Shown: piece by piece, positions 2,488 to 26,061 of the stretch
How positions within the stretch are numbered: the first letter of the stretch is position 1
How the letters are laid out: the number at the start of each line of letters is the position of its first letter
Assembly: GCF_003334815.1 (NCBI RefSeq)
Contig: NZ_QOWO01000004.1
DNA: 64,000 nucleotides
Direction: 5' to 3' (one strand)
Origin: Escherichia coli
Lineage (GTDB): Bacteria; Pseudomonadota; Gammaproteobacteria; Enterobacterales; Enterobacteriaceae
The notes under the pieces: generated by a model
Told to the model about the DNA's origin: nothing
The model's input: only the letters and a program-made list of their open reading frames with translations
The model's database searches: none
Program-made: the position numbers and the translations under genes

Positions 2488-3576
2488 ATGAATAACCGGG
2501 AAAAGGAGATCCTTGCAATTTTACGGCGTAACCCGCTGATTCAGCAGAACGAAATTGCGGACATGCTGCAAATCAGCCGTTCGCGCGTTGCGGCGCATAT
2601 TATGGATTTAATGCGCAAAGGCCGGATTAAAGGCAAAGGTTACATTCTCACCGAGCAGGAATACTGCGTAGTGGTGGGGACAATCAATATGGATATTCGC
2701 GGGATGGCGGATATCCGTTACCCGCAATCGGCTTCTCATCCCGGTACAATTCATTGCTCAGCGGGCGGCGTGGGACGCAACATCGCCCACAATCTGGCGC
2801 TGTTAGGCCGTGACGTCCATTTGCTTTCAGTGATTGGCGATGACTTTTATGGCGAAATGCTCCTGGAAGAAACGCGCCGTGCCGGCGTGAATGTCTCCGG
2901 CTGCGTTCGTTTGCATGGTCAAAGCACATCGACGTATCTGGCAATTGCCAATCGAGACGATCAAACCGTGCTGGCGATTAACGATACCCATCTGCTGGAA
3001 CAGTTGACACCGCAACTACTGAACGGGTCGCGCGATTTACTTCGTCATGCGGGCGTGGTACTGGCTGATTGCAACCTGACAGCCGAGGCGCTGGAATGGG
3101 TCTTTACCCTCGCTGATGAAATCCCGGTGTTTGTCGATACCGTTTCAGAATTCAAAGCGGGCAAAATCAAACACTGGCTGGCGCATATTCACACCCTGAA
3201 ACCCACTTTACCGGAGCTGGAAATTTTATGGGGACAGGCGATCACCAGCGATGCTGACCGTAATACCGCAGTGAATGCATTGCATCAGCAAGGTGTTCAG
3301 CAACTGTTTGTTTATTTGCCCGATGAGTCAGTTTATTGCAGCGAAAAGGATGGAGAACAATTTTTGCTGACCGCGCCAGCGCATACGACAGTAGACAGTT
3401 TTGGTGCTGACGATGGTTTTATGGCGGGCCTGGTATATAGCTTTCTTGAAGGATACAGTTTCCGCGACAGCGCCCGTTTTGCGGTAGCCTGCGCGGCAAT
3501 TTCGCGCGCCAGCGGCAGCTTAAACAACCCTACCCTGTCTGCCGATAACGCGCTTTCATTAGTGCCAATGGTGTAA
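2488..3576 (+). CDS. yeiI: Uncharacterized PfkB/ribokinase-family kinase with N-terminal HTH domain
   Basis: 362-aa ORF; N-terminal winged-helix-like segment followed by sugar-kinase motifs (GGVGRNIA, DxxGAGD); paralog of PsuK. Confidence 0.9.
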   Translation: MNNREKEILAILRRNPLIQQNEIADMLQISRSRVAAHIMDLMRKGRIKGKGYILTEQEYCVVVGTINMDIRGMADIRYPQSASHPGTIHCSAGGVGRNIAHNLALLGRDVHLLSVIGDDFYGEMLLEETRRAGVNVSGCVRLHGQSTSTYLAIANRDDQTVLAINDTHLLEQLTPQLLNGSRDLLRHAGVVLADCNLTAEALEWVFTLADEIPVFVDTVSEFKAGKIKHWLAHIHTLKPTLPELEILWGQAITSDADRNTAVNALHQQGVQQLFVYLPDESVYCSEKDGEQFLLTAPAHTTVDSFGADDGFMAGLVYSFLEGYSFRDSARFAVACAAISRASGSLNNPTLSADNALSLVPMV

Positions 3577-3583
3577 CAATGTT

Positions 3584-3674
3584 GCCGGATGCGACGCTTA
3601 ACGCGTCTTATCCGGCCTACAAATCAGGCAATTTCAGCAAGTAAATGTAGGCCTGATAAGCTTGCGCATCAGGC
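3584..3674. repeat. REP/BIME element (two REP units in inverted orientation) downstream of yeiI and nupX
   Basis: GCCGGATGCGACGC...TATCCGGCCTACA and inverted TGTAGGCCTGATAAG...GCATCAGGC match the E. coli REP consensus. Confidence 0.6.
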
Positions 3675-3682
3675 AATGACAC

Positions 3683-4933
3683 TCAAGCTAAACCAATAAA
3701 GAGCCCGGCAATGGTCGCACTCATCAAGTTGGAAAGCGTCGCCGCCGCCAGCGCCCGTAAACCAAGCTGGGCGATTTCCGGCGCACGGTGTGGCGCAACC
3801 GCAGAAAACGCCCCCACCACCACCCCGATAGAACCAAAGTTAGCGAAACCGCACAACGCGAAGGAAATAATCGCCACAGTTTTAGCATCGAGAGTGCCAG
3901 CCGTTTGCAGATAGGGTGAGAAATTGAGATAAGCGACAAATTCATTTATTGCCAGTTTCTGTCCAATCAAACTCCCGGCAAGATTCGCATCACTCCAGTC
4001 CACACCCATCACCCACGCCAGTGGAGCCAGCAGGTAACCTAAAATGGACTCCAGCGAGGCATGTTCAAAACCAAACCAGCCACCAACGCCGCCGATAATA
4101 CCGTTAATCAACGCAATTATTGCAACAAATGCCATCACCACTGTTGCCACACCTGCGGCGATTTTCAGCCCGGTCATTGCCCCTGTCGCAGCGGCTTCAA
4201 TAATGCTTTTTGGCGGTGTTTCGGTGAAAGAGAGGTTATTAAAGGAAACCTGCGAAGATTCCGTTGCCGGGCTTAACAGGCGGGCAAACAAGATCCCGCC
4301 AGGGATCGCCATTAATGATGCCGCCAGCAGATATTCCACAGGCACGCCCAGTGCGGCGTAACCAATCATTGTCGAACCAGCAATCGAGGCCATGCCACTA
4401 CAAATCGCTGTAAATAATTCATTGCGATTCAGACGATCGATAAAGGGTTTGACGATTGCCGGAATTTCGTTTTGCCCGAGGAAAATGGTGGTGACCGCGA
4501 CGAATGACTCGATCTTGCTGATATTTAATGCTTTCTGGAAGATACCGCCGAGAATTCGAATTAAAATCCCCATCACACCGATGTAGTAGAGAATACTCAC
4601 CAGCGCGGTGACGAAGATAATTGCCGGTAACACCCTGAAACCAAAGATAAATCCTGCACCATCAAATAAGGTATCCATTTTCGGTCCGACCAGAGAACCG
4701 AAGATAAATGCGCTACCCGCGTCGCTGTACGCCATCACTTTATGCACGCCAAAAGCGACTTTTTCAGCGACCCAACGCCCTGGCGGTAACCAAAGCATAA
4801 TGCCGCCAATCACGACCTGTAACACTAACGCCGCGCCAACGGTACGCAGGCTGATCTTCTTCTTGTTTACTGACAGTAAAAACGCAATCGTCAGCAATAC
4901 CACCATTCCCAGAACACTTCTCATGACATCCAT
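3683..4933 (-). CDS. nupX: Concentrative nucleoside transporter family permease NupX
   Basis: 416-aa multi-TM ORF; about 85 percent identical to PsuT in this window. Confidence 0.9.
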   Translation of the reverse strand: MDVMRSVLGMVVLLTIAFLLSVNKKKISLRTVGAALVLQVVIGGIMLWLPPGRWVAEKVAFGVHKVMAYSDAGSAFIFGSLVGPKMDTLFDGAGFIFGFRVLPAIIFVTALVSILYYIGVMGILIRILGGIFQKALNISKIESFVAVTTIFLGQNEIPAIVKPFIDRLNRNELFTAICSGMASIAGSTMIGYAALGVPVEYLLAASLMAIPGGILFARLLSPATESSQVSFNNLSFTETPPKSIIEAAATGAMTGLKIAAGVATVVMAFVAIIALINGIIGGVGGWFGFEHASLESILGYLLAPLAWVMGVDWSDANLAGSLIGQKLAINEFVAYLNFSPYLQTAGTLDAKTVAIISFALCGFANFGSIGVVVGAFSAVAPHRAPEIAQLGLRALAAATLSNLMSATIAGLFIGLA

Positions 4934-5032
4934 AGTGATTATCTCTTCATGTCATATTGGGCGACGGCTTTCTGCCCATCAGAAATAGCCAGGCCTGCAT
5001 CTTGCGATACCGGCCCGGCTTGTTATCAACAC

Positions 5033-5974
5033 TTAATGGGTTTTGATGTAGCCGCGCACGCACTCTTCGACTAATCCCCAGAACCAGTCTGTATCAATAG
5101 TGATGCCGACTTTGGTATTGGCGGGCTTGCCAAGAACGCCCAGCTCGTCGCAGACGGTACGCCCATAGCAAGGGCCACTGTTGACGTCCACTTCGACGTA
5201 CATCTCCTGGGTTTTAATGCCATCAGGGTTAATCAGATAACCGATGCAGGTGGCGTCGTGCACCGGGCCGCCAGCAAGGCCGTAGTTTTCGAACTGCGTT
5301 TTGAGAGTGAAGTTCATGATGTCGCTGAACAGCTCTCCGGCGGGGCCGCCTGCCCTTTCCATCCGAGCAATCACGTCCGGGGTGCAAACGGTCTGGTTGG
5401 TGAGATCGAGGCCCATCATCACTAATGGAACGCCGGAGGTGAACACTACGCGTGCGGCTTCCGGGTCGGCAAAGATGTTGAACTCGGCAGATGGCGTGAA
5501 GTTGCCTGTACCGTAAGCGCCGCCCATTAGCACAATTTCACGGATTTTGGGCAGGATCGCGGGTTGCATACGCATTGCCACCGCGATATTTGAAAGCGGA
5601 CCAACCGGCACCAGAGTGATATCGCCATCGCTTGCCATCAGGGTATCAATGATATATTTCACCGCATGAGTGCTTTCTGCCTGGCGGGTCAGCGGCTCGA
5701 ATACCGGGCCATCCAGTCCGGTTTCACCGTGAATATTATCGGCAACGATTTGTTGACGCATAATGGGCTGCGGCATCCCCGCATAAACCGGAACATTAAT
5801 CTCCAGTTTCTGGCAAACATTCAGGCCATTAATTAATGTTTTATCAAGCGTCTGATTACCCGCTACAATAGTGATGCCTAATAAATCTATTGCCGGATGT
5901 TTCGCCGCCATCATTATAGCAATAGCATCATCATGACCCGGATCACAATCCAGAATAATTTTTCTCTTTTCCAT
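5033..5974 (-). CDS. rihB: Pyrimidine-specific ribonucleoside hydrolase RihB
   Basis: 313-aa ORF starting [23 protein letters not shown], the nucleoside hydrolase DxDxxxDD motif. Confidence 0.9.
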
Positions 5975-6142
5975 TGTTTATTTCCTCTGTTTCCAGTTGC
6001 GTTATTTTTTCTACAGCAAAGAAAATTCGACCGGGCCGATGATTGAATCTTAACAACAGCGTACGTATGCTAAATATGAGAAATCTCATAGCGGATAAAC
6101 ATCGTGAAAGAAATCCACAATAATGATCTTAAGCAGCAATTG

Positions 6143-6802
6143 ATGAGTGAATCCGCGTTTAAGGATTGCTTTTTAACGGATGTTTCAGCCGATACGCGGC
6201 TGTTTCATTTTTTAGCGCGTGACTACATTGTGCAGGAAGGGCAACAGCCGTCCTGGCTGTTTTACCTGACGCGAGGCCGCGCCAGGCTTTACGCCACGCT
6301 AGCTAATGGTCGCGTGTCGCTGATCGATTTCTTTGCCGCCCCCTGTTTTATTGGCGAGATTGAGTTAATCGATAAAGACCATGAACCGCGTGCGGTGCAG
6401 GCTATTGAAGAGTGTTGGTGCCTTGCGCTCCCTATGAAACATTACCGTCCGCTGTTATTAAACGACACGCTATTTTTACGAAAACTCTGCGTCACCTTAA
6501 GTCATAAAAATTATCGTAATATTGTTTCTTTAACTCAGAATCAATCATTTCCGTTAGTGAATCGCCTGGCAGCATTTATATTACTCTCGCAGGAAGGTGA
6601 TCTTTATCACGAAAAGCATACGCAAGCGGCAGAGTATTTAGGCGTTTCTTATCGACATCTTTTATATGTTCTCGCGCAGTTCATTCACGACGGTTTATTA
6701 ATTAAAAGCAAGAAAGGGTATCTCATTAAAAACAGAAAGCAGTTGTCAGGACTGGCGCTGGAGATGGACCCGGAGAATAAATTCTCCGGGATGATGCAGT
6801 AA
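6143..6802 (+). CDS. yeiL: Crp/Fnr-family transcriptional regulator YeiL
   Basis: ORF with cNMP-binding-like fold and C-terminal HTH; ATG at 6143 gives 219 aa; an upstream in-frame GTG at 6104 is an alternative start. Confidence 0.8.
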
Positions 6803-6825
6803 AAATTATTTTCAATAGCGCGATT

Positions 6826-6863
6826 GCCGGATGCAACGCTTAATACGTTTTATCCGGTCTACA
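6826..6863. repeat. REP element downstream of psuT
   Basis: GCCGGATGCAACGCTTAATACGTTTTATCCGGTCTACA matches REP consensus; same relative position as the REP downstream of the paralog nupX. Confidence 0.55.
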
Positions 6864-6872
6864 AATCGAGCA

Positions 6873-8123
6873 TTACGCCAGACCAATAAAGAACCCGGCA
6901 ATAGTCGCACTCATCAGGTTGGAAAGCGTTGCTGCTGCCAGCGCCCGTAAACCAAGCTGGGCGATTTCCGGCGCGCGTTTTGGCGAAATAGCCGAAAATG
7001 CGCCAACGACAACACCGATAGAACCAAAGTTAGCAAAACCACAAAGCGCAAAGGAGATAATCGCAATGGTTTTCACTTCCAGCGTGCCGCCTGTTTGCAG
7101 GTATGGGGAGAAACTCAGGTAAGCGACGAATTCGTTAATCGCCAGTTTCTGCCCAATCAGGCTACCCGCAAGATTGGCATCACTCCAGTCCACACCCATG
7201 ATCCACGCCAGCGGTGCCAGCACATAGCCAAAAATACTTTCCAGAGAGGCATTGGCGAAACCAAACCAGCCGCCAATTCCGCCGATAATGCCGTTGATCA
7301 GCGCAATAATTGCGACAAACGCCATTACCACCGTCGCCACACCAGCGGCGATTTTTAGCCCGGTCATCGCACCGCTCGCCGCCGCTTCGATAAAGCTTTT
7401 TGGCGGCGTTTCGCTGAACGACAGATTTTCAAATGTGACCTGCGAAGGCTCGGTTGCCGGGCTAAGAATACGTGCAAACAAAATCCCGCCAGGGATCGCC
7501 ATCAGCGATGCCGCTAACAGGTAGTCAATTGGTACGCCCATTCCGGCATAACCAATCATCATCGAACCAGCAATGGACGCCATCCCGCTACAAATTGCGG
7601 TAAACAACTCGTTGCGATTCATGCGATCGATAAACGGTTTAACGATCGCCGGGATCTCATTTTGCCCGAGGAAAATAGTAGTAACCGCAACAAAAGATTC
7701 GATTTTGCTGATGTTGAGGGCTTTCTGGAAAATGCTGCCAAGGATGCGAATCAGCAGCCCCATCACGCCAATGTAGTACAGCAGACTGATGAGCGCAGTA
7801 ACGAAAATAATCGCCGGAAGTACGCGAAAGGCGAAGATAAAACCCGCACCGTCAAACAGGACATCCATTTTCGGCCCAACCAGCGAACCAAAAATGAAGG
7901 CGCTACCGGCATCACTGTAAGACATCACTTTATGAACGCCTAATGCCGCCTGTTCTACTGCCCATTTTCCCGGTGGGAAGTAGAGCATGATGCCACCAAT
8001 AGCGATTTGCAGCAGCAGTGCGGCTCCAACCGTGCGCAAACTGATGCTCTTTTTATTCACTGACAACAGAAATGCTATTGCCAGTAACACCACCATCCCC
8101 ACAACACTTCTCATTATATCCAT
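6873..8123 (-). CDS. psuT: Putative pseudouridine transporter (CNT family)
   Basis: 416-aa ORF, paralog of NupX; last gene of psuK-psuG-psuT arrangement. Confidence 0.9.
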   Translation of the reverse strand: MDIMRSVVGMVVLLAIAFLLSVNKKSISLRTVGAALLLQIAIGGIMLYFPPGKWAVEQAALGVHKVMSYSDAGSAFIFGSLVGPKMDVLFDGAGFIFAFRVLPAIIFVTALISLLYYIGVMGLLIRILGSIFQKALNISKIESFVAVTTIFLGQNEIPAIVKPFIDRMNRNELFTAICSGMASIAGSMMIGYAGMGVPIDYLLAASLMAIPGGILFARILSPATEPSQVTFENLSFSETPPKSFIEAAASGAMTGLKIAAGVATVVMAFVAIIALINGIIGGIGGWFGFANASLESIFGYVLAPLAWIMGVDWSDANLAGSLIGQKLAINEFVAYLSFSPYLQTGGTLEVKTIAIISFALCGFANFGSIGVVVGAFSAISPKRAPEIAQLGLRALAAATLSNLMSATIAGFFIGLA

Positions 8124-8216
8124 AATGATTTTCCCTTCATGCCGGTAAACCCGGCGTCAGCGCCAGGTTTTGGTATGCTTGATGAGTACGGGCGACGGCT
8201 TTCTGCCCGTCAGAAA

Positions 8217-9155
8217 TTAACCCGCGAGACGCTGATATTCTTTGGCAATTTCGCTCGCCAGAATGGCGTTGTTGAACACCAGCTGGATGTTGGATTTCAG
8301 GCTGTCACCGCCGGTCAGTTCAGCAACGCGCGCCAGCAGGAATGGCGTACTTTCTTTACCAATGACTCCCTGAGCTTCAGCTTCAGCTACCGCCTGATCG
8401 ATCGCCGCATTGATAGTGTGTTCCGGCATAGCAAACTGTTCCGGGATCGGGTTCGCTACCACGAGGCCACCGTTCAGACCGCTTTGCCATTTCACCGCCA
8501 TTGCACGGGCAATTTCGCTGGCGCTGTCGAGACGAATGCTGACGTCAAACGGGCTGGTGCGGCAGAAAAACGCAGGCAGCGCTTTAGTCTGATAGCCAAT
8601 TAACGGCACACCGAAGGTTTCTAAATACTCAGTGGTTAATCCTAAATCGAGAATAGATTTCGCCCCGGCACAAACAACGGTGACATTAGTATTTGCCAGT
8701 TCTTGCAAATCGGCAGAAATATCGAAGGTATGTTCCGCCCCGCGATGCACACCACCAATTCCCCCGGTGGCAAATACTTTAATTCCGGCAAGCGCCGCAA
8801 TAATCATCGTTGAAGCCACAGTGGTTGCGCCATTTTTTCCGGCGGCAACAACAAAAGGTAAATCGCGACGACTAACTTTGGTCACGTTATGCCCTTCACG
8901 ACCCAGTAATTCAATTTCTTCTTTGCTTAACCCCACTTTCATCACGCCGCCAATAATGGCGATCGTGGCAGGTACAGCGCCCTGTTTACGAATAGTTTCT
9001 TCAACTTCAATTGCGGTCTGGGCATTTTGTGGGAACGGCATCCCGTGAGAAATAATGGTCGATTCCAGCGCCACAACCGGTTTTTTGTTTTTTAAAGCGT
9101 CCTGCACTTCCGGGGAAATTTGTAATAATTCAGGGGAAATTTTTAATTCAGACAT
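8217..9155 (-). CDS. psuG: Pseudouridine-5'-phosphate glycosidase
   Basis: 312-aa ORF recognised as PsuG (YeiN); overlaps psuK by 13 bp. Confidence 0.9.
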   Translation of the reverse strand: MSELKISPELLQISPEVQDALKNKKPVVALESTIISHGMPFPQNAQTAIEVEETIRKQGAVPATIAIIGGVMKVGLSKEEIELLGREGHNVTKVSRRDLPFVVAAGKNGATTVASTMIIAALAGIKVFATGGIGGVHRGAEHTFDISADLQELANTNVTVVCAGAKSILDLGLTTEYLETFGVPLIGYQTKALPAFFCRTSPFDVSIRLDSASEIARAMAVKWQSGLNGGLVVANPIPEQFAMPEHTINAAIDQAVAEAEAQGVIGKESTPFLLARVAELTGGDSLKSNIQLVFNNAILASEIAKEYQRLAG

Positions 9156-10084
9156 TCTGCGTTCTCCACTAACGATATAACGTTGGCAATCGATAAATCG
9201 GGGTTATTGGTGTATTCACAGGAGAGCGCCATTGACGAACATCCCTGTGCGAAACGAACAGATTCGGCAAACGGCATTCCGTCTACCCAACACGAAGCAA
9301 GTCCCGCCATCATGGCATCGCCCGCTCCGGTAACATTAATAACATTGGTTTTGATCGGCGCAGACCAGCCACTTTCACCGCTGATATCGCTGTAATAAAC
9401 GCCGTCGCCGCCCATGCTCAATACCAGTCGGTTCAGGCCATGTTGATGGAACCAGGCAGCAACTTTTGCCACATCTTCACGCCCTGACAGCGCAATCCCA
9501 CTCAGGGTTTCCGCTTCAAGGCGGTTTGGCTTGAGAGTGTGGATCTGATTTAGACGGTCGCGCACTTTGACACATTTCCATGCCGAAACCGGATCGACAA
9601 ATACGGGTACGTTGGCGGCATTATCCAGAATCCATGCCAGTGCCTCTTCACTGATATTACAGTCCGCGACAATGACCTTTGCCCTCTGAATAAATTCACC
9701 GTGCTGTGCGAGATATTCAGCTGTAATAGCGTTGCTAATATTCATGTCATTTATAGCAACCAGCATTTCACCGGTATTATCGAGTAATGATAAATAACTC
9801 GACGTATTTTCTCCCGGCACAATCAGGCATTTATCGACATAAACGCCAGATTGATTGGTTTGCGTTAGCAGCGATTGACCATAAAAATCACTGCCTACGG
9901 CGCTCAGTAGCCAGGCTTTGTTACCCAGCAACGCCAGGTTTTGTGCAATATTGCGCCCTACTCCACCAGGCGTAAATTTTATTTTACCTGGATTTGAATC
10001 CGCATAATTTAATGATTCATGTGAATATCCGGCGACATCAATATTCGCCGAACCTATAATTACGACATAATCCTTTTCGCGCAT
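9143..10084 (-). CDS. psuK: Pseudouridine kinase (PfkB family)
   Basis: 313-aa ORF with ribokinase-family motifs (GGVGRNIA, GAGDAMMAG). Confidence 0.9.
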   Translation of the reverse strand: MREKDYVVIIGSANIDVAGYSHESLNYADSNPGKIKFTPGGVGRNIAQNLALLGNKAWLLSAVGSDFYGQSLLTQTNQSGVYVDKCLIVPGENTSSYLSLLDNTGEMLVAINDMNISNAITAEYLAQHGEFIQRAKVIVADCNISEEALAWILDNAANVPVFVDPVSAWKCVKVRDRLNQIHTLKPNRLEAETLSGIALSGREDVAKVAAWFHQHGLNRLVLSMGGDGVYYSDISGESGWSAPIKTNVINVTGAGDAMMAGLASCWVDGMPFAESVRFAQGCSSMALSCEYTNNPDLSIANVISLVENAECLN

Positions 10085-10321
10085 AGCACGTCCTCTGGTA
10101 AAAAATTACCAACCCTGTCAATCCACAAGAATATAGATACTGCAAAGACGGTTTAAACATGTGTTCATATTTAAACATGTGCTCATAGTATGCATGTTTT
10201 ACGTAAAGTAAATTACCGCCAGAGAGGCAAAATGGGCAGATTTGAGCAGGCTCACAAAATGCGATTAAATGCCTGAATTACAAAAGCGAGGAATTTGTGA
10301 CGGGATGCACAGAACAGAACA

Positions 10322-24966: not shown

Positions 24967-26061
24967 ATGGGCGCTTACCTGATTCGCCGTCTGTTGCTGG
25001 TGATCCCAACATTATGGGCGATTATCACCATCAACTTTTTCATCGTGCAAATTGCGCCTGGCGGTCCGGTCGACCAGGCCATCGCCGCCATTGAGTTTGG
25101 TAATGCCGGAGTATTACCCGGCGCAGGCGGTGAAGGTGTTCGTGCCAGCCATGCGCAAACGGGTGTCGGCAATATCAGCGACAGTAATTACCGTGGCGGA
25201 CGCGGATTAGATCCAGAAGTGATCGCTGAGATCACTCATCGCTACGGTTTTGATAAGCCGATCCACGAACGTTACTTCAAAATGCTCTGGGACTACATCC
25301 GCTTTGATTTTGGCGATAGCCTGTTTCGCAGCGCCTCGGTGCTGACGCTGATTAAAGACAGTCTGCCGGTTTCCATCACCCTCGGATTGTGGAGCACGCT
25401 GATTATCTATCTGGTGTCGATTCCGTTAGGCATTCGCAAAGCTGTTTATAATGGGAGCCGCTTTGACGTCTGGAGTAGCGCATTTATCATCATCGGCTAC
25501 GCCATTCCGGCCTTTTTGTTTGCCATCCTGCTGATTGTCTTCTTCGCGGGCGGCAGCTATTTCGACCTGTTCCCTCTACGCGGCCTGGTTTCCGCTAACT
25601 TTGATTCGCTGCCGTGGTATCAGAAAATCACCGATTATCTGTGGCATATCACGCTGCCGGTGCTGGCGACAGTGATTGGTGGCTTTGCGGCGCTGACCAT
25701 GCTGACAAAAAACTCATTCCTTGATGAAGTGCGCAAGCAATACGTGGTGACCGCGCGTGCGAAAGGGGTAAGTGAAAAAAATATTCTCTGGAAACATGTG
25801 TTCCGCAACGCCATGCTGCTGGTGATTGCCGGTTTTCCGGCGACGTTTATCAGCATGTTTTTTACCGGCTCGCTGCTGATTGAGGTGATGTTTTCACTCA
25901 ATGGTCTGGGCTTACTGGGCTACGAAGCGACCGTCTCGCGCGATTATCCTGTAATGTTTGGTACCTTGTATATTTTCACCCTGATTGGCCTGCTGCTGAA
26001 TATTGTCAGTGATATCAGCTATACGCTGGTTGATCCGCGTATTGATTTTGAGGGACGTTAA
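24967..26061 (+). CDS. yejB: ABC transporter permease YejB
   Basis: 364-aa multi-TM ORF, immediately follows yejA. Confidence 0.9.

Follow-up and report, generated by a model that had tools for sequence, protein, structure and literature searches.

In a 64,000-nucleotide stretch of Escherichia coli DNA (contig NZ_QOWO01000004.1 of assembly GCF_003334815.1, analysed at full length and called the window below), the gene yeiI encodes a helix-turn-helix (HTH) domain fused to a PfkB-type kinase-like domain. From sequence and structure comparisons we lean, by a modest preference, towards YeiI being a pseudouridine-sensing repressor of the nearby psuK-psuG-psuT operon (psuKGT), with NupX and RihB, which are encoded next to it, forming a separate uridine/cytidine unit. 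The gene order in the window is yeiH, nfo, yeiI, nupX, rihB, yeiL, psuT, psuG, psuK, fruA, and its psuK-psuG-psuT region is the well-known pseudouridine (psu) catabolic locus of E. coli. A 9-kb query with the locus gave a match in all 5426 E. coli genomes, several complete genomes being 100% identical. All of these genes carry annotations. PsuK, PsuG and RihB were already characterised, while YeiI was called uncharacterised in papers of 2022 and 2025 (PMC9061257, PMC12506659); machine-learning tools name it a pseudouridine kinase, a call that curators reject (PMC12506659). Among E. coli K-12 proteins it counts as one of those still uncharacterised; it is catalogued in the literature only as a hypothetical transcription factor, and in the literature search no paper was found that proposes a regulator of psuKGT or describes HTH-fused pseudouridine kinases.

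YeiI was aligned with PsuK at 39% identity from YeiI residue 54 onwards, which leaves 53 extra N-terminal residues, and Pfam models assigned HTH_24 to residues 1–48 (E = 2.3e-10) and PfkB (PF00294) to residues 58–348 (E = 3e-68). The original prediction, made from the sequence of the window, had described YeiI as a PsuK paralogue with an HTH-like N-terminal extension of about 50 residues, and this description holds. An AlphaFold2 model (predicted local distance difference test, pLDDT, 89.9; predicted template modelling score, pTM, 0.83) contains, within residues 3–54, three helices with a beta wing, the helices at 3–14, 20–27 and 31–43 being followed by a beta hairpin (pLDDT 78–93), so that the HTH fold in question is present in the model. 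The modelled kinase domain superimposed on E. coli PsuK crystal structures with a template modelling (TM) score of 0.94–0.96 and a root-mean-square deviation of 1.4–1.9 Å, and Foldseek comparisons with PsuK and ribokinases, with E values down to 6e-39, placed it in the ribokinase-like fold. Structure searches returned no solved structure in which an HTH and a PfkB domain occur together.

Homologues that combine HTH_24 with PfkB occur commonly among Proteobacteria. In Yersinia, Serratia, Xenorhabdus and Pasteurella the HTH-PfkB gene stands first in an operon and is followed by psuG and a CNT transporter gene, which is the order of E. coli psuK-psuG-psuT; in Shewanella it is followed by psuG, and in a Burkholderiaceae genome by psuG and a Bmp/ABC nucleoside transporter. 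The kinase domains of these fused operon proteins are 54–61% identical to E. coli PsuK versus 44–50% to YeiI. By neighbour-joining on the kinase domain, the HTH-less PsuK of Enterobacteriaceae and the fused operon kinases were grouped at 100% bootstrap, and YeiI and the Affinibrenneria protein formed a clade of their own, also at 100%. This grouping argues that PsuK is an HTH-loss derivative and YeiI an HTH-bearing paralogue; read in this way, the fused HTH-PfkB protein appears to be the usual pseudouridine kinase, from which Enterobacteriaceae PsuK has lost the HTH, with YeiI as a diverged paralogue that has it. A search for an HTH-coding remnant 5′ of E. coli psuK, by tblastn with four HTH domains, gave no match beyond the point at which the kinase domain starts.

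Conservation is unevenly spread over the two domains. The HTH of YeiI is 70–76% identical to those of the Yersinia, Serratia and Photorhabdus fusions, as against 48–51% for the kinase domain, and is the best-conserved part of the protein; the recognition-helix residues of the HTH-PfkB family are invariant or nearly so. Both domains of yeiI are under purifying selection, with a ratio of nonsynonymous to synonymous substitution rates (omega) of about 0.04–0.08. Xenorhabdus cabanillasii has a second, stand-alone HTH-PfkB protein of 355 aa (6001–7068 of the locus extract), which is not encoded beside psuG, has canonical GAGD and Met114, and has an AACA-N2-TGTT sequence about 275 nt upstream; the fused kinase seems to have been duplicated independently here.

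A candidate operator was obtained by enumeration, in which all 2304 palindromes with two 4-nt arms and a spacer of 0–8 nt were counted in the 300 nt upstream of psuK or HTH-psuK in nine independent HTH-bearing lineages. The top palindrome was AACA-N2-TGTT, present in eight of the nine, with a one-mismatch copy in the ninth (Serratia). The runner-up, CAAA-N6-TTTG, occurred in four of the nine and is an extension of the same site; the background was 0.028 per 300-nt window. Exact copies of AACA-N2-TGTT were located within 300 nt upstream of the gene at 20 of 22 loci, and Klebsiella oxytoca, which has yeiI, carries a pair of exact copies 18 bp apart. Upstream of E. coli psuK an exact copy (O1) and a copy with one mismatch (O2) are likewise 18 bp apart and make up the sole tandem pair in the window, and the scan of the window gave no AACA-N2-TGTT site near nupX, rihB or yeiL. 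Two other exact copies, at 156–165 (in yeiE) and 25793–25802 (in an open reading frame), are coding and were taken as incidental. For the "no HTH, no operator" control, which comprised two operons only, HTH-less psuK-psuG-CNT operons without a neighbouring HTH-PfkB gene were used (Aeromonas jandaei and a Pasteurellaceae metagenome-assembled genome, MAG), and neither had an exact copy upstream. The A. jandaei operon lies on a short contig together with a phage-type integrase gene and a WYL-domain gene, as an island.

The palindrome could instead be bound by another factor, the HTH of YeiI having its targets elsewhere (e.g. at the nfo-yeiI unit) or being vestigial. This would suit the start of yeiI, which lies 2 nt past the stop codon of nfo, with which yeiI is probably co-transcribed, and the RNA polymerase-binding peak between the two genes (PMC3946193). 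The motif, however, tracks HTH-PfkB across unrelated neighbourhoods and is absent where HTH-PfkB is absent, and it is the HTH that is most conserved in YeiI; we regard this explanation as very improbable.

Upstream of psuK in Enterobacteriaceae a conserved order of elements was found, consisting of a CRP-like site (TGTGA-N6-TCATA), TTTACT, TAnnAT 16 nt downstream of it, and two operator copies. In the window the CRP-like site, assigned by its resemblance to the consensus, has its centre some 71 nt upstream of the inferred transcription start, and O1 and O2 together extend from about −5 to +22 on the inferred promoter; lying over that start, they are in the position of a repressor site. A promoter-like TTTAAA-16-TATATT from the scan tool was set aside, its −10 region not being conserved in other genera. 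During evolution of E. coli within the gut of mice, a recurrent A-to-C change at 2257444, between psuK and fruA, was said to alter psuK expression, and the psuK/fruA up-mutation was gained in most lines (PMC7518454, PMC9509342). Its recurrence indicates that expression of the psuK operon matters in the gut. Position 2257444 is taken by us to correspond to window position 10210, by way of a 1978-bp offset between MG1655 reference versions, with the change turning TTTACT into TTGACT; position 10210 is intergenic and an A, consistent with that offset. The single-nucleotide polymorphism (SNP) would then be a promoter-up mutation in the inferred −35 hexamer, beside the candidate operators, and supports the promoter assignment.

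As regards the ligand, PsuK contacts the ribose through Asn14 and Asp16 and has a base pocket of Tyr97, Asn112 and Met114; Ser30 (Ser or Thr; contacts N1), Asn143 and Lys170 are the hallmark polar residues of pseudouridine kinases, and Asp256 is the catalytic base (PMC9061257). Of these residues, all but Met114 are kept in YeiI and its clade. The hallmark triad reads Ser83, Asn196 and Lys223 in YeiI and is kept in at least 94 of 95 homologues, so the likely ligand of YeiI is predicted to be pseudouridine, and not the unidentified nucleoside that had been proposed as its substrate. Sequences of the YeiI clade (41) were then compared with PsuK-like sequences (49), in PsuK numbering, and five positions alone were conserved differently: M107T, M114T, N187T, A191L and G255D. 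Two of these fall in phosphoryl-transfer motifs. At the NXXE site YeiI reads T-L-P-E (Thr240), where 49/49 PsuK-like sequences have Asn and 40/41 members of the YeiI clade have Thr; at the GAGD site it reads G-A-D-D (Asp308), with Asp in place of Gly in 41/41 and the catalytic Asp retained. Asn187 of PsuK is part of a proposed Mg2+ site (PMC9247573), and Gly255, the anion-hole Gly of GAGD, directly precedes the catalytic Asp256. The phosphoryl-transfer machinery of YeiI thus appears specifically altered and not destroyed, and the fixed changes in both motifs suggest a protein that senses pseudouridine with poor or no turnover. Of the original proposal that YeiI may act as both enzyme and regulator, the regulatory part is plausible.

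YeiI might also be a second, fully active pseudouridine kinase, autoregulating or redundant with PsuK and comparable to the fused HTH-PsuK found elsewhere in bacteria, and not a dedicated regulator of psuKGT. Conservation of the catalytic base, of the ribose-binding residues and of most of the ATP/Mg site speaks for it, as do purifying selection on the kinase-like domain comparable to that on psuK and the fact that the nearest homologues outside the YeiI clade are operon kinases. We nevertheless consider it unlikely: the NXXE and GAGD changes are fixed clade-wide, without a regulatory role it is hard to see why a redundant kinase carrying a highly conserved HTH should persist next to an operon already supplied with a kinase, and a psuK mutant is reportedly unable to use pseudouridine, according to a review (PMC12506659), from which it follows that YeiI is no in vivo substitute for PsuK.

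For YeiI as a repressor, the following mechanism is proposed. A YeiI dimer would sit on the two tandem (C)AAACA-N2-TGTTT(G) candidate operators over the psuK transcription start and keep psuKGT repressed, CRP acting as activator of the promoter. Pseudouridine would bind the kinase-like domain through Ser83, Asn196 and Lys223. Closure of the dimer has been described from PsuK crystals (PMC9061257); a similar closure of YeiI upon pseudouridine binding could re-space the HTHs, each tied through a short linker to the kinase domain's first strand, and so release the DNA. N187T and G255D would let YeiI sense pseudouridine without consuming it, and in species with a fused kinase a single protein would serve for both catalysis and regulation.

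The genomic setting of yeiI was compared in one genome per species with YeiI, E. coli proteins being mapped onto 21 loci, of which 19 were informative (a 390-bp fragment and a degraded Citrobacter koseri locus were excluded as uninformative). At 14 of the 19 the arrangement was yeiH-nfo-yeiI> <psuT-psuG-psuK <fruA, yeiI and psuT being direct neighbours (E. albertii, most Citrobacter, Enterobacter, Kluyvera, Buttiauxella, Phytobacter ursingii and Kosakonia). Klebsiella oxytoca has yeiI tail-to-tail with psuT-psuG-psuK and lacks nupX, rihB and yeiL, and at least nine other genera have the nfo-yeiI> <psuT-psuG-psuK layout without these three genes. In Affinibrenneria (Pectobacteriaceae) the same four-gene unit, HTH-PfkB> <CNT-psuG-PfkB (311 aa), lies in an unrelated neighbourhood; linkage of yeiI to psuG, as looked for in a pseudouridine kinase, was accordingly found at every informative Enterobacteriaceae locus compared and in Affinibrenneria. 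Salmonella, Pseudocitrobacter and Entomohabitans have both YeiI and HTH-less PsuK, on contigs of equal length that are probably the same ones. Among the loci scanned, the nupX-rihB-yeiL block was limited to E. coli and close Escherichia, one C. amalonaticus strain and Phytobacter diazotrophicus. In the latter two the yeiI-proximal transporter copy has the 3′ flank of single-copy relatives, and their yeiL-psuT flanks are homologous to each other. Within E. coli the rihB-yeiL block is present in 5419 of 5426 genomes and yeiI in 5423. Judged by this distribution, nfo-yeiI> <psuT-psuG-psuK is the probable ancestral form in Enterobacteriaceae, with the nupX-rihB-yeiL block inserted between yeiI and psuT; and because so many genera have yeiI beside psuTGK without the block, the adjacency of yeiI and nupX in E. 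coli is secondary, a by-product of the insertion.

Some irregular loci were noted in addition. Escherichia sp. MOD1-EC7003 retains yeiI-nupX-rihB-yeiL, but its psuK is gone altogether, as are most of psuT and part of psuG. In C. koseri NCTC10786, yeiI, psuT, psuG, psuK and fruA all appear fragmented, as pseudogenes or through assembly errors. Some E. coli genomes have IS1 or IS903 insertions in rihB or yeiL; in two, IS1 lies beside a second coding sequence with a cNMP-binding domain, and in one, IS903B lies between two nucleoside-hydrolase coding sequences.

The original prediction had read yeiI, nupX and rihB as a kinase-transporter-hydrolase module, in which YeiI would be the kinase, and perhaps the regulator as well, with an unidentified nucleoside, possibly a modified one, as substrate. 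In E. coli yeiI does adjoin nupX-rihB, the base-pocket residues M107T and M114T differ from PsuK, and NupX transports uridine and cytidine weakly and at low efficiency, so that its best substrate may be another nucleoside; PsuT transports none of uridine, cytidine and xanthosine (PMC11241209). The module is not supported by the comparison across genera, as those with yeiI beside psuTGK have neither nupX nor rihB; the candidate operator occurs at the psuK promoter only, with none near nupX, rihB or yeiL; the polar contacts that define pseudouridine are all conserved in YeiI; and RihB hydrolyses unphosphorylated uridine and cytidine (PMC10526354), which leaves a kinase without a partner in the pathway. 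We hold the module to be improbable. RihB acting on unphosphorylated nucleosides and NupX carrying uridine and cytidine, the pair needs no kinase, and the best reading of NupX-RihB is a separate unit for uridine/cytidine uptake and hydrolysis.

The unit is probably under the control of YeiL or of another regulator. YeiL had been described beforehand as a Crp/Fnr-type regulator lying between the two gene groups, and Pfam confirmed it, with cNMP_binding (PF00027) at aa 35–119 (E = 6e-14) and HTH_Crp_2 (PF13545) at aa 154–215 (E = 6e-6). It is reported to be a regulator of stationary phase and nitrogen starvation with one known target (PMC3590769, PMC9308461). Because yeiL accompanies rihB in all three lineages that bear the block, its product suggests itself more naturally as a candidate regulator of rihB-nupX.

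Several observations weigh against YeiI as a pseudouridine-sensing repressor and account for the restraint with which we put it forward. Near yeiI itself no candidate operator was found in the window scan. The promoter hexamers and transcription start of psuK are inferred from conservation and from one adaptive SNP, and the inferred promoter scores 8/12, under the threshold of the promoter scan, which favours another site. In YeiI, Asp256, Lys185, Asp164 and Glu190 are all kept, and by these residues it may still be an active kinase, and, with two Met residues of the base pocket replaced by Thr, its ligand could be a different one. Placement of the YeiI clade as sister to the PsuK/fused group has 59% bootstrap by neighbour-joining, and its origin may lie in a duplication or in horizontal acquisition. 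Finally, two lineages (A. jandaei and the Pasteurellaceae MAG) have an HTH-less PsuK without an adjacent YeiI, and a strict co-occurrence of HTH-less PsuK with YeiI was rejected on account of these two exceptions.

The two transporter genes were compared in their own right. NupX and PsuT are 416 aa each and align without gaps at 88% identity, close to the roughly 85% estimated earlier, and the two segments are 85% identical in nucleotides across the coding region. The nonsynonymous divergence (dN) is 0.077, the synonymous divergence (dS) 1.40 and omega 0.055, with synonymous sites saturated; a recent duplication was rejected on this dS. It is about as large as that between E. coli psuT and psuT of Citrobacter or Kluyvera (1.1–1.5), and the duplication is therefore old, with both copies under purifying selection. 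Within C. amalonaticus S646 and P. diazotrophicus the paralogue pairs have dS values of 0.47 and 0.73, below those of orthologues across genera, which suggests gene conversion between the copies on either side of rihB-yeiL or separate acquisition of the block.

It had been argued from similar repetitive extragenic palindromic (REP) elements on the 3′ sides of the two genes that a segmental duplication included flanking DNA. The REP elements near the transporters, three in number, are imperfect palindromes placed after stop codons, with similar copies elsewhere in the genome, as is typical of REPs, which measure about 35–40 nt, and of bacterial interspersed mosaic elements (BIMEs); nupX has two inverted REPs (a BIME) at its 3′ side and psuT has one. 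In Rfam, the REP-derived naRNA4 gave a weak match below threshold. The first nupX-side REP and the psuT-side REP are 86–89% identical, the value for this pair being 88.6% where remote window REPs at 54057–54435 gave 87.8% against the nupX REP; all three elements are 88% similar to REPs at 40789–40867 and 54057–54435. As the nupX REP is equally close to unrelated REPs, REP similarity by itself is no proof of a co-duplicated flank and was dropped as sufficient evidence for one. Paralogy and a co-duplicated flank are supported by other features. E. albertii has one REP, in the yeiI-psuT spacer, whose left part resembles the yeiI-side copy of E. coli and whose right part resembles the psuT-side copy, and a 28-nt block in the 5′ leaders of nupX (4959–4986) and psuT (8190–8217) is identical at 27 of 28 positions despite the saturated synonymous sites. 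That nupX and psuT are true paralogues, and that the duplication took flanking sequence along, is thus supported. Farther away in the window (53989–54541) lies a tandem BIME cluster with 4.9 copies of a 113-nt unit at 95% inter-copy match, each unit holding two REP-like palindromes.

In an alignment of 13 Enterobacteriaceae genomes the psuG-psuT spacer was strongly conserved and contained two hairpins. H1 (about 8190–8212) has a CGGGC...GCCCG stem with one compensatory pair and a loop of conserved sequence, and its core GGGCAG..GTCGCCC is kept across genera. H2 (8147–8171; AAAACCUGGCG-loop-CGCCGGGUUU) is longer than H1 and invariant save for the loop. Its stem is G+C-rich, with a U-tract paired with an A-tract upstream. 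The nupX leader retains H1 alone, without H2. Neither this leader nor that of psuG-psuT matched an Rfam family beyond the weak REP-related naRNA4. A palindrome in the 28-nt block, TTTCTG-N5-CAGAAA, was rejected as an operator: significant in the window, it is yet restricted to Escherichia, and of this stretch other genera keep just the H1 core.

Within E. coli, yeiI is sharply dimorphic. In 2060 of 5423 complete genomes the allele is only 80–90% nucleotide-identical to that of K-12 and the window. The FORC_029 gene (9001–10089 of the compared locus extract) has 81% nucleotide and 86% amino-acid identity to the window allele, falling to 73–74% across 2751–3250, and its flanking genes are 98.6% (nfo), 94.6% (nupX) and 96.7–99.3% (rihB to fruA) identical. 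The nearest relative of the second allele is E. albertii YeiI (93% at the protein level), and this allele is also nearer to other genera than its K-12 counterpart; both have GADD, Thr240 and the triad for pseudouridine. Introgression or balancing selection could have produced the two alleles.

Positions of the genes and elements discussed are collected in the table below.

Table: Features of the yeiI-psuK region, with positions counted from the first nucleotide of the window
Feature	Position	Strand	Description
yeiI	2488–3576	+	HTH-PfkB gene; winged HTH aa 1–48 = nt 2488–2631; PfkB aa 58–348
BIME, yeiI-nupX spacer	3582–3675	.	REP 3582–3630 and inverted REP 3647–3675
nupX	3683–4933	-	CNT-family nucleoside transporter, paralogue of psuT
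Leader block with hairpin H1	4959–4986	-	28 nt, common to nupX and psuT leaders
rihB	5033–5974	-	Pyrimidine ribonucleoside hydrolase; member of the predicted inserted block
yeiL	6104–6802	+	Crp/Fnr-family regulator; divergent from rihB; member of the predicted inserted block
REP 3′ of psuT	6824–6872	.	Single
psuT	6873–8123	-	CNT-family transporter; final gene of psuK-psuG-psuT
psuG-psuT leader	8124–8216	-	Hairpins H1 and H2; alignment of 13 genomes
psuG	8217–9155	-	Pseudouridine-5′-phosphate glycosidase; orthologues with Indigoidine_A domain
psuK	9143–10084	-	Pseudouridine kinase without HTH
Candidate operators O1 and O2	10156–10183	-	O1 10156–10165; O2 10174–10183
Inferred psuK promoter	10185–10212	-	−35 TTTACT 10207–10212; −10 TACTAT 10185–10190
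CRP-like site	10241–10256	-	TGTGA-N6-TCAAA; resemblance to consensus

A further and doubtful step, which we offer tentatively, is that an ancestral bifunctional HTH-kinase was split in Enterobacteriaceae, PsuK carrying on catalysis without an HTH and YeiI retaining the HTH and the pocket with degraded motifs, as the first PfkB-fold kinase known to serve as a dedicated transcription factor and with selection acting on its alleles. If true, this would be a clean natural case of an enzyme-regulator with two functions that has divided into an enzyme and a sensor; YeiI would control a modified-nucleoside salvage operon whose promoter was repeatedly selected in the mouse gut, and the two deeply diverged yeiI alleles would reflect selection on psuKGT regulation. 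The repressor reading makes YeiI a regulator candidate for that operon and gives a specific assignment, with pseudouridine as predicted ligand, the psuK promoter as predicted target, an operator sequence, and Thr240 and Asp308 as diagnostic residues. The analysis points, moreover, to an entire family of HTH-fused pseudouridine kinases, so far uncharacterised, in Proteobacteria.

Among the known systems closest to YeiI is E. coli PsuK (PUKI, YeiC, EC 2.7.1.83; PDB 7vkp, 7vtd, 7vva), with the same PfkB fold, the same locus and 39% identity, from which YeiI differs by the 53-residue winged HTH, a separate clade, and N187T, G255D, M107T, M114T and A191L. With the HTH-PfkB fusions encoded in operons (Yersinia, Serratia, Photorhabdus, Xenorhabdus, Pasteurellaceae, Shewanella and a Burkholderiaceae genome), which are known from annotation, it shares the architecture, an HTH that is 57–76% identical, the candidate operator upstream and the association with psuG. 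These fusions keep canonical NXXE, GAGD and Met114 and are the sole kinase of their operon, whereas YeiI is encoded outside the operon, convergent to psuTGK and beside an HTH-less kinase. The transporters NupX and PsuT belong to the CNT family like NupC-type transporters (by annotation, and by Pfam on orthologues), and RihB, of the RihA/RihB pyrimidine nucleoside hydrolases, is a characterised uridine/cytidine hydrolase (PMC10526354); with uridine and cytidine transport absent in PsuT and weak in NupX (PMC11241209), the paralogues have diverged in function.

The concept of an enzyme fold serving as a sensor is already familiar; what would be new here is a PfkB-fold sensor-regulator and the split between PsuK and YeiI. 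The repressors NagC and Mlc are related to ROK sugar kinases, the kinase fold being reused as the ligand sensor of an HTH regulator of the matching catabolic genes. YeiI would stand to PsuK by analogy and not by homology with these, its PfkB/ribokinase fold being distinct from the ROK/ASKHA fold. BirA and NadR are bifunctional enzyme-repressors in which an N-terminal winged HTH is fused to an enzyme of the regulated pathway. The fused HTH-PsuK proteins may work in the same way, although the enzyme families are unrelated and in YeiI the enzyme half may be impaired.

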